Source: a virus (Duplodnaviria; Heunggongvirae; Uroviricota; Caudoviricetes). Taken from it: a stretch of DNA of 6,089 bases. Position numbers and translations under genes: made by a program. Below, in pieces: positions 2,885-6,089 of this stretch (position 1 is the first letter of the stretch; every line of letters starts with the position of its first letter). The notes below the pieces were generated by a model, which was given only the letters and a program-made list of their open reading frames with translations, had not been told where the DNA came from and made no database searches. The DNA lies in IMG/VR virus record IMGVR_UViG_2684622669_000003, positions 1 to 6,089 of that record; one strand, written 5' to 3'.

Positions 2885-3736
2885 ATGAGCAGACATGCAA
2901 CAGATTGGGCCTGGGAGACAGATCCGGGTAGCTCGTCATTAAAGCTCATACTGCTCTCGATGGCTGACAGAGCCGATGAATATAACCTCTGCTACCCCAG
3001 CATAGAACGCCTCGTTAAAGACACTTGCCTGAATAAAAAAACCGTACAGGCCGGGCTTATATCGCTCATGAAAATGGGGCTTATTTCAGATACCGGAGAG
3101 AGAAAGGGAGCGACGAAAAGAGTGCGGGTTTTCTCTCTTAATATAACCAAAAACGGGAACATTAAAGGCAACCGGGAAGGGAGCAATGAACCCGAAAACG
3201 GTAATGTTCCCGAAAACGGTAATGTTCCCGAAAACGGTAATGTTCCCGAAAACGGGAATATACCCAAAAACGGGATGTTGAATGATCCCAAAAACGGGAT
3301 GTTGAATGATCCCAAAAACGGGATCCAGAACCAGTCATATAACCAGTCATTTAACCAAGAGAGGGAGAGCAGGACAAAAGCCGGGGATTCTGTGCCTCAT
3401 GACCCCGGCGCAAACAACGCCGTGATGAATAACTTTGTTCCTCCTGGTGGGCCAGGGCAATTAGGCAAATTTGTCATGCATGAACAATGGCAGCCATCAG
3501 ATGACTTTCTTCGGAAAAGCTCATTGCAGGGGATCTACCTGGACAGTCTGCCAACGGCACAGGAACTTGCAGAGTTCAGAATTTACTGGATGGCTGAGGG
3601 TAAGGCATACCATCAGGCACAGTGGGAGCAGAAGCTGGCAAGGCGGCTGCAGATTAGCAGACAGAAGCAATCAACATTACCTGATAACAACGTTCCGCAC
3701 TGGAACAGCCCTGAAGCATGGGAGGATTTCTTGTGA
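2885..3736 (+). CDS. phage replication initiation protein (functional analogue of lambda O): N-terminal HTH DNA-binding domain, repeat-encoded linker, C-terminal domain resembling DnaT-like replication proteins
   Basis: Complete ORF in the track. GGAG RBS 7 nt upstream of the ATG. N-terminal region (LKLILLSMADRADEYNLCYPSIERLVKDTCLNKKTVQAGLISLMKMGLIS) fits the winged-HTH pattern of phage replication initiators. Linker is encoded by tandem DNA repeats (NGNVPE x4, NGMLNDPK x2). Stop overlaps the start of the P-like gene. Domain naming is from recollection. Confidence 0.7.
   Translation: MSRHATDWAWETDPGSSSLKLILLSMADRADEYNLCYPSIERLVKDTCLNKKTVQAGLISLMKMGLISDTGERKGATKRVRVFSLNITKNGNIKGNREGSNEPENGNVPENGNVPENGNVPENGNIPKNGMLNDPKNGMLNDPKNGIQNQSYNQSFNQERESRTKAGDSVPHDPGANNAVMNNFVPPGGPGQLGKFVMHEQWQPSDDFLRKSSLQGIYLDSLPTAQELAEFRIYWMAEGKAYHQAQWEQKLARRLQISRQKQSTLPDNNVPHWNSPEAWEDFL
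3191..3324. repeat. iteron-like direct repeat array: 7 units with core CCC(G/A)AAAACGG, spaced 18,18,18,18,24,24 bp; followed by a 12-bp direct repeat pair CCAGTCAT(A/T)TAA at 3331-3354
   Basis: Seen directly: cccgaaaacggtaatgtt x3, cccgaaaacgggaatata, cccaaaaacgggatgttgaatgat x2, cccaaaaacgggat. Located in the linker-coding part of the initiator gene, the arrangement known for ori-lambda inside gene O. Confidence 0.65.
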
Positions 3737-5041: not shown

Positions 5042-5605
5042 ATGGAAAGTAATATCAAAGGGTTAGTTGCCGCCGGGCATGAGATAGCTTCGGAACTGAA
5101 AGCAGAATGTTGTGCCGTTGATATGCGCAGTGTGGCAAAGCTGATCAGCGATTTGGCAACGCAACTGGAATTGCAACTGGTGCGTGCTAATGCGCTGGCC
5201 GAAGACCAGCAGAAAGCGATTGAGTCAATTAAGCAGGCTGATGCAGCTGTTAAGTTGGCACACGAGAAGTTTTCGGCGCTGGCGGCGGAGAATGCGGGGC
5301 TGAAGTCTGGCGCTATGGACGAAATCAAGGTTATCAACCGTGGAGGGCAGGCATATTGCGTAAAAGATGGAGTGCAAGTTAATCCCATGTATGCAAGAGG
5401 GTGGAATGACTATCGCGCAAAGTTTCTGCAATCAGACACCCCAGCTACCGATGCTTTTCTGGCTGAAATTCGTGCAGAAGCACGCAACGAGGGGATTAAC
5501 TATACCGCCAGCCGTCTTGCTGCTGCTTTCAACCACGGATTTATCAATAAGTCTTTGCGTGAAGTTTTCGACGTTACACGCATGATTCTGTCAGCGAAAG
5601 AATAG
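5042..5605 (+). CDS. hypothetical phage protein, 187 aa, alanine/glutamate-rich and predicted helical N-terminal half; ends at a TAG followed by 33 in-frame sense codons
   Basis: Complete ORF in the track; GAGGG RBS 5 nt upstream of the ATG. No family recognised. Confidence 0.65.
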   Translation: MESNIKGLVAAGHEIASELKAECCAVDMRSVAKLISDLATQLELQLVRANALAEDQQKAIESIKQADAAVKLAHEKFSALAAENAGLKSGAMDEIKVINRGGQAYCVKDGVQVNPMYARGWNDYRAKFLQSDTPATDAFLAEIRAEARNEGINYTASRLAAAFNHGFINKSLREVFDVTRMILSAKE

Positions 5606-5703
5606 TTGGCTAATGAACTGCACCCGATTGATGGCCTGTCCGGTGAATATGCGGAGAAATCCCTTGAAGAATGGGCGGAACAGATTCGCAAAGGAGGCAA
5701 CCA

Positions 5704-6089
5704 GTGAGCAAGATTGACTATGAGGCACTGCGTGCCAAGGCAGAAAAAGCAACGTGTGGTGTATGGTCGCTCGAATATGGAGAGAGCCGATTTGATTGTG
5801 ATGATGCGCTAATTCATCGCGAGGCTGCTGGATATATTCCCATTTGCAGAATTGAAGGAGCGCATCCTGAAAGCGGTTTCGATGAAGATTTCCAAATGGA
5901 ACAGCAGGCCAATGCTGAATTCATCGCCGCAGCCAGTCCAGCTACCGTGCTGGCGCTGCTGGATGAACGGGAAAGAAACCAGCAATACATCAAAAGCCGT
6001 GATCAGGAGAACGAGGATATTGCGCTAACGGTAGGGAAACTGCGTGTTGAGCTGGAAGCCGCAGAGAAGCGCAACGCAAAATTACAAAG
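5704..6089 (+). CDS. Ead/Ea22-like family protein, 5' partial (runs off the window end)
   Basis: GTG start at 5704 with AAAGGAGG 6 nt upstream; open to the window end (128 codons). N-terminus VSKIDYEALRAKAEKATCGVWS matches my recollection of the Ea22-like N-terminal motif (ALR..AEKAT.G.W). Not in the track because no stop falls inside the window. Confidence 0.55.
   Translation, partial: MSKIDYEALRAKAEKATCGVWSLEYGESRFDCDDALIHREAAGYIPICRIEGAHPESGFDEDFQMEQQANAEFIAAASPATVLALLDERERNQQYIKSRDQENEDIALTVGKLRVELEAAEKRNAKLQ

Follow-up and report, generated by a model that had tools for sequence, protein, structure and literature searches.

An in-frame amber codon in the eae gene of an Escherichia albertii prophage is very probably a recent nonsense mutation

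Introduction

Why does an open reading frame that ends at an amber codon continue in the same frame, without interruption, up to the very start codon of the next gene? This question is raised by a stretch of prophage DNA of 6,089 nucleotides (hereafter the window), in which a 187-codon open reading frame on the plus strand (5042-5605, with an ATG start at 5042) is closed by a TAG at 5603-5605, in the context TCA GCG AAA GAA TAG TTG GCT AAT GAA. Past this TAG, the frame stays open for 33 codons, (L)ANELHPIDGLSGEYAEKSLEEWAEQIRKGGNQ, until a TGA at 5705-5707 that shares the sequence GTGA (5704-5707) with the GTG start (5704-5706) of an Ead/Ea22-family gene. A first-pass annotation of the window had described the stop, the open codons and the overlapping TGA, all of which we confirmed in the sequence, and had called the downstream gene Ea22-like, in agreement with the match of this gene to Pfam Ead_Ea22 (PF13935, E 3e-30). 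It had left two explanations side by side, namely, an amber mutation in a gene that originally encoded a 221-aa protein and stop-codon read-through. The features of the locus are as follows:

5042..5605, plus strand: truncated eae, 187 sense codons and TAG, matching residues 1-187 of the complete Eae-family protein (221 aa)
5603..5605, plus strand: amber TAG, very probably derived from GAG (Glu188) via G-to-T at 5603
5606..5707, plus strand: orphaned 3' end of eae, 33 codons and TGA, equivalent to residues 189-221 of the intact protein
5691..5697, plus strand: Shine-Dalgarno AAGGAGG of the Ea22-like gene, as read from the sequence, inside the eae tail
5704..6089, plus strand: 5' part of the Ead/Ea22-family gene (PF13935), with a GTG start, continuing past the contig end

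The probability of 33 open codons, computed from the base composition of the window, is 0.18, and runs of at least 33 codons make up 23% of all inter-stop runs in its six frames, so that the earlier estimate of a chance of about 20% holds. The openness of the 33 codons is not significant by itself, and the case is decided by comparative data.

Results

The window is the complete contig BBWB01000064.1 (6,089 bp) of assembly GCA_001515025.1, from Escherichia albertii K7744. Accessions BBWB01000001-116 correspond to strain K7744, isolated in 2009 from a symptomatic human in Japan, the draft genome of which was obtained by MiSeq sequencing with a redundancy of 67x and assembled with Platanus 1.1.4 (Ooka et al. 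2015, supplementary table S1, PMC4700944). In RefSeq, the two parts of the frame appear for E. albertii as two proteins, WP_237764192.1 (187 aa, "hypothetical protein") and WP_237764193.1 (33 aa, "eae protein").

The contig belongs to a lambdoid prophage and carries a DUF3799 nuclease-like gene, a cI-like repressor gene, an O-like and a P-like replication gene and a DUF1064 gene, followed by eae and the Ead_Ea22 gene. The eae gene of the window thus lies in a lambdoid or P22-like early region with an Ead/Ea22-family neighbor, and the order from the cI-like repressor through O-like, P-like, DUF1064 and eae to Ead_Ea22 was also found in the loci L002 and L216. The pair formed by eae and the Ea22-like gene is located 3' of O-P-DUF1064 in the prophage of the window, in E. 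coli LS45 and in L216. The early-left region, following abc2 and DUF2737/orf56, is the site of eae in P22, phage L and the E2348/69 prophage. The eae/Ea22-like module evidently moves between two genome positions.

The O-like gene (2885-3736) contains tandem repeats at 3191-3357 (18 bp x4.6, 24 bp x2.6, and 12 bp x2.4), translated as NGNVPE and KNGMLNDP peptide repeats, which we take to be similar to the lambda-type origin iterons sited within the O gene. Its product has 283 aa in the window and 271 aa in the near-identical E. coli prophage L216, indicating that the copy number of the repeats varies. At 3733-3736, the O-like gene ends and the P-like gene begins in a shared GTGA (TGA stop, GTG start), as at the eae/Ea22-like junction.

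The identity of the interrupted gene became apparent when the stop was replaced by Glu: the resulting 221-aa sequence matches phrog_614 across residues 1-221 (E 9e-67). A tblastn search against phage genomes found this family in 222 records, the named ones being Eae or EaE and including the founding P22 eae, which is matched over residues 76-218 (E 2e-13). Similarity to the Eae family (P22 eae/phrog_614) extends over the C-terminal module, and sequence searches with the 221-aa sequence returned no Pfam, NCBIfam or PDB relative indicating a function.

An alignment of 50 homologues (A1) divides the protein into three modules, namely, a coiled-coil N-terminus (residues 1 to 87) and a C-terminal module (residues 134 to 221), both conserved, and between them a hypervariable middle (residues ~88 to 133). 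The truncated gene retains the first two modules entirely and the third up to its residue 54, and the TAG falls within the conserved C-terminal module. E187, the residue directly before the TAG, is invariant over the 50 homologues of A1, as are N191, L208, E209, A212, and R216 in the tail; in alignment A2, the invariant columns include A141, E150, G151, R158, G166, F167, D177, R180, M181-L183, E187, A190, and R216. AlphaFold, run on the alignment of 50 sequences, gave a poor model (mean pLDDT of 52, and <50 over most of residues 131-221), and the helices that it places at 172-190 and 203-216, in this low-pLDDT region, were not relied on.

The family at large is composed of three-module mosaics, in which the middle spans 0 to ~70 residues and the C-terminal module comes in at least three alternative forms (P0001-P0135, A1). 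Open reading frames in the fetched eae loci range from 41 to 291 aa, and the annotation "Eae protein" extends to short remnants, for example P0133 (64 aa). Three proteins of 187 aa from the same 90% cluster (P0123, P0126, and P0129) were considered as further truncated copies and rejected, because they carry a different C-terminal module; their equal length is a coincidence.

What stands at codon 188 in intact relatives? All 82 fetched loci have GAG opposite the TAG, and over 105 distinct homologous contexts the codon is GAG in 103 and GAT in 2, with a stop in none. In 81 of the 82 loci, the frame then continues for exactly 33 codons to the GTGA overlap, so that the tail belongs to a single open reading frame; in E. 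coli LS45, for instance, RefSeq holds an intact 221-aa protein (WP_042095183.1), the stop of which overlaps the Ea22-like start. As the frame of the window stops at codon 188 and lacks the full-length product with its C-terminal tail of ~34 residues, we consider the window to hold a disrupted member of the Eae family.

The closest alleles differ from the window by hardly more than the stop itself. The E. coli prophage L216 (GCA_042809365.1) is near-collinear with the window and 99.07% identical to it over 6,040 aligned bases, and its intact 221-aa eae differs at 2 of 666 nucleotides, G5222A (E61K) and G5603T. The intact eae of L217 likewise differs at 2 of 666 nucleotides, one of them being G5603T, and in four further loci (L001 and L004-L006, including E2348/69), G5603T is the sole difference in the 270-nt C-terminal module. 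At the protein level, the open reading frame of the window is 99% identical to two 221-aa proteins, P0001, which shares 218 of 221 residues with the eae sequence of the window, and P0128, which is identical except for E61K and E188. Orthologues hence carry a sense codon that is one substitution away from the stop, and the two differences from the intact L216 gene argue for a recent GAG-to-TAG transversion.

Read in frame, the sequence after the stop (LANELHPIDGLSGEYAEKSLEEWAEQIRKGGNQ in translation) is homologous to the C-terminal end of the intact proteins. It is identical in amino acids to the tails of P0128 and of the E2348/69 prophage protein, which has a different N-terminus and an identical C-terminal module reading SAKEELANELHPIDG, and it is kept in P22 Eae, phage L EaE, a Klebsiella phage protein and a divergent E. 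coli allele (MILTSTEFMANAPEGDFDRSFSDGVLEDIAEQLRKGVIQ). Matches obtained by tblastn in Lelliottia, Enterobacter, Phytobacter, and Pseudescherichia also extend to residue 218-219. The tail has a pN/pS of 0.27, with 8, 5, and 14 polymorphic sites at codon positions 1, 2, and 3, respectively; this predominance of third-position changes, together with the pN/pS, shows the tail to be under purifying selection. Most replacements concern position 193 (L/P/A/S/Q) and the last four residues, which overlap the Shine-Dalgarno of the next gene. Aligning homologues across the stop had been proposed at the outset as a check, with homologues ending at residue 187 and lacking a conserved tail as the disproof; we found the opposite, a sense codon in 105 of 105 contexts and a tail conserved as far as P22 Eae. 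The first of the two initial explanations, an amber mutation of an originally 221-aa protein, is thereby supported by the intact alleles, by GAG or GAT at codon 188 throughout, and by the conserved tail.

Some of the matches deserve a separate mention. Enterobacterial eae C-terminal modules occur in a contig of an "Actinomycetes bacterium" metagenome-assembled genome (L207, JAFAFN010000164.1; 92% identity) and in a 397-bp contig of a Streptomyces assembly (L214, NZ_JBGVSN010000053.1; 94% identity), and both contigs probably stem from enterobacterial phage DNA that is a contaminant or was mis-binned. In E. coli 382634_2f, the 41-mer of the GAG allele lies under no annotated feature (H78, NZ_CP039403.1, 1829244-1829284), and neighboring genomes annotate a hypothetical protein at the matching place; H78 may be another disrupted or unannotated eae copy.

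The open and intact frame after the TAG, ending at the conserved GTGA junction, could also be read as the product of functional suppression, in which a suppressor or near-cognate tRNA would decode UAG and yield 187-aa and 221-aa isoforms, and low-level near-cognate read-through of UAG does occur in any bacterium. Nevertheless, a conserved stop at codon 188 is found in 0 of the 105 contexts, all of which have GAG or GAT, so the TAG is not a conserved recoding site. The window contains no tRNA gene, and the stability of the fold predicted for 5590-5740 does not exceed that of shuffled sequence (z = 0.47), giving no significant RNA structure; the base that follows the TAG is U, and a stop followed by U is a strong termination context in E. 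coli. None of the 12 genes called in the window has another in-frame TAG, and we thus see no sign of TAG reassignment, a code in which many in-frame TAGs and a suppressor tRNA go together. Programmed read-through and TAG recoding were accordingly rejected, for want of a homologue stop, a tRNA gene, a further in-frame TAG or an RNA structure, and the second initial explanation, stop-codon read-through, finds no support in the 0/105 homologue stops, the z of 0.47 and the U after the stop. We regard a functional read-through of this UAG as extremely improbable.

A different reading of the same junction is that of a split gene, in which ribosomes stopping at the UAG would restart at the UUG at 5606 and produce the tail as a separate 33-aa peptide. 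Such reinitiation would keep the ribosome flow into the GTGA junction, and the peptide might complement the 187-aa fragment. The TTG directly follows the stop (UAGUUG), bacterial ribosomes are known to restart in this way after terminating close to a start codon, and the tail is listed by gene callers, as well as by RefSeq, as a 33-aa open reading frame with a TTG start. However, this TTG is the Leu189 codon of the intact homologues, and it is essentially devoid of Shine-Dalgarno pairing, with -0.9 kcal/mol compared to -8.9 to -11.6 kcal/mol at the four other starts tested. Moreover, the two-gene arrangement is seen in no homologue, nothing points to an association of the 187-aa and 33-aa fragments, and the RefSeq name "eae protein" presumably comes from similarity rather than from expression. 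The weak pairing and the Leu189 codon of the intact relatives also led us to reject a designed, independent small gene starting at TTG 5606, and reinitiation at this codon appears very unlikely.

The distribution of the TAG allele was followed with a 41-mer centered on the TAG, which is unable to seed a megablast match on the GAG allele. It had 0 matches in 5,426 complete E. coli genomes, in which the GAG 41-mer was found at 494 places in 421 genomes, and 0 matches in 50,697 phage records and 72,556 plasmids. Exact TAG patterns were likewise found 0 times in GTDB species representatives, IMG/VR and JGI metagenome contigs, and the exact GAG pattern was found in at least 120 IMG/VR stretches. 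Among ~15 billion proteins, the exact 187-aa and 33-aa products each occur on this one contig only. Judged from the collections searched, the TAG allele appears to be strain private.

This rarity also fits an artefact of sequencing or assembly, in which the true base of K7744 at 5603 would be G, the gene would be intact, and the TAG would exist in the deposited contig alone. The allele is unique to one draft contig of 6,089 bp and absent from every other collection searched, and this contig is short and comes from mosaic multi-copy prophage DNA, with up to eight related places per E. coli genome. The assembler used for the K7744 draft, Platanus, merges near-identical variants, and G-to-T is a typical oxidative-damage artefact. 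Against this, consensus substitution errors are rare at a depth of 67x, the redundancy reported for this MiSeq draft, and the bases of even a merged bubble would come from real reads. The remainder of the contig gives no sign of poor quality, with 99.07% identity to an E. coli prophage, the open reading frames of which are intact, and the contig is recorded in two samples, which are perhaps not independent. On balance, we consider an artefact unlikely, with a small but real chance of being the explanation.

Discussion

Altogether, these comparisons argue strongly that the TAG at 5603-5605 arose recently through a nonsense mutation, private to this strain, which hit eae in a lambdoid prophage of K7744 and very probably truncated a 221-aa protein. 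As shown by the intact alleles, the ancestral gene encoded a 221-aa Eae-family protein, with its stop codon overlapping the GTG of the next Ead/Ea22-family gene. We propose that the GAG codon of Glu188 was converted to TAG by a G-to-T transversion at 5603 and that release factor 1 would now end translation at the UAG, 34 residues early, giving a 187-aa product. This product is probably inactive or impaired, since it would lose the end of a conserved module, including the invariant N191, L208, E209, A212, and R216. The 33 downstream codons would be an untranslated remnant, too recent to have decayed; hence, the intact tail would reflect the recency of the mutation and not selection on a read-through product.

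A nonsense mutation at this position may also affect the neighboring gene, as the stop-start coupling of eae to the Ea22-like gene would be lost, the overlap being uncoupled by 99 nt. The Shine-Dalgarno of the Ea22-like gene, AAGGAGG, located six bases upstream of the GTG, forms an anti-Shine-Dalgarno duplex of -11.6 kcal/mol and is conserved as CAAAGGAGGCAACCAGTGA in 60 of the 82 loci. With this strong Shine-Dalgarno of its own in an unstructured region, the Ea22-like gene is probably still translated, by independent initiation. Its counterpart in L216 encodes a 266-aa Ead_Ea22 plus DUF551 product.

An alternative would be that the TAG is tolerated, with eae working either as a split gene (the 187-aa fragment and a reinitiated 33-aa peptide) or via low-level read-through of the UAG. 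If so, an accessory gene of a prophage would offer a naturally occurring case of fragment complementation or leaky termination; we grant this reading a very slim chance. A nonsense mutation of the type favored here is already-known biology, and its biological weight is small, as it would be one more point lesion in a non-essential prophage gene of a single draft genome. The consequences are rather for annotation, where WP_237764192.1 and WP_237764193.1 are very probably two fragments of the same interrupted gene, for which a single pseudogene entry with an internal stop would be more fitting. More generally, an open frame that follows a stop and ends in a stop-start overlap calls for comparison with intact alleles before recoding is invoked.

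The locus can be set beside three known situations. In phage Qbeta, the A1 protein is made by UGA read-through, and the likeness to this programmed read-through lies in an in-frame stop after which an open extension looks like coding sequence. In programmed read-through, though, relatives share the stop and the extension forms a domain of its own, whereas the relatives of the window eae all have a sense codon, and what looks like an extension is the regular end of one conserved module. The locus also resembles an ordinary amber pseudogene mutation, with a stop one base from the sense codon of the relatives, a downstream frame that is still homologous and a private allele, and no difference from this situation was found for the TAG of the window.

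The last comparison is with the P22-type Eae proteins. P22 eae (AAF75010.1), phage L EaE and the Klebsiella phage protein align with the protein of the window over the whole C-terminal module, including the tail, and an Ead/Ea22-family gene follows the eae of the window with a GTGA overlap, as in many lambdoid prophages and, in our set, in 81 of the 82 homologous loci. Unlike the P22-type genes, the frame of the window is broken by the TAG at codon 188, and its eae pair lies 3' of O-P-DUF1064, whereas P22, phage L and the E2348/69 prophage have theirs beside abc2 in the early-left region. In keeping with the mosaic nature of the Eae family, the window Eae also differs from that of P22 in its N-terminal and middle modules.
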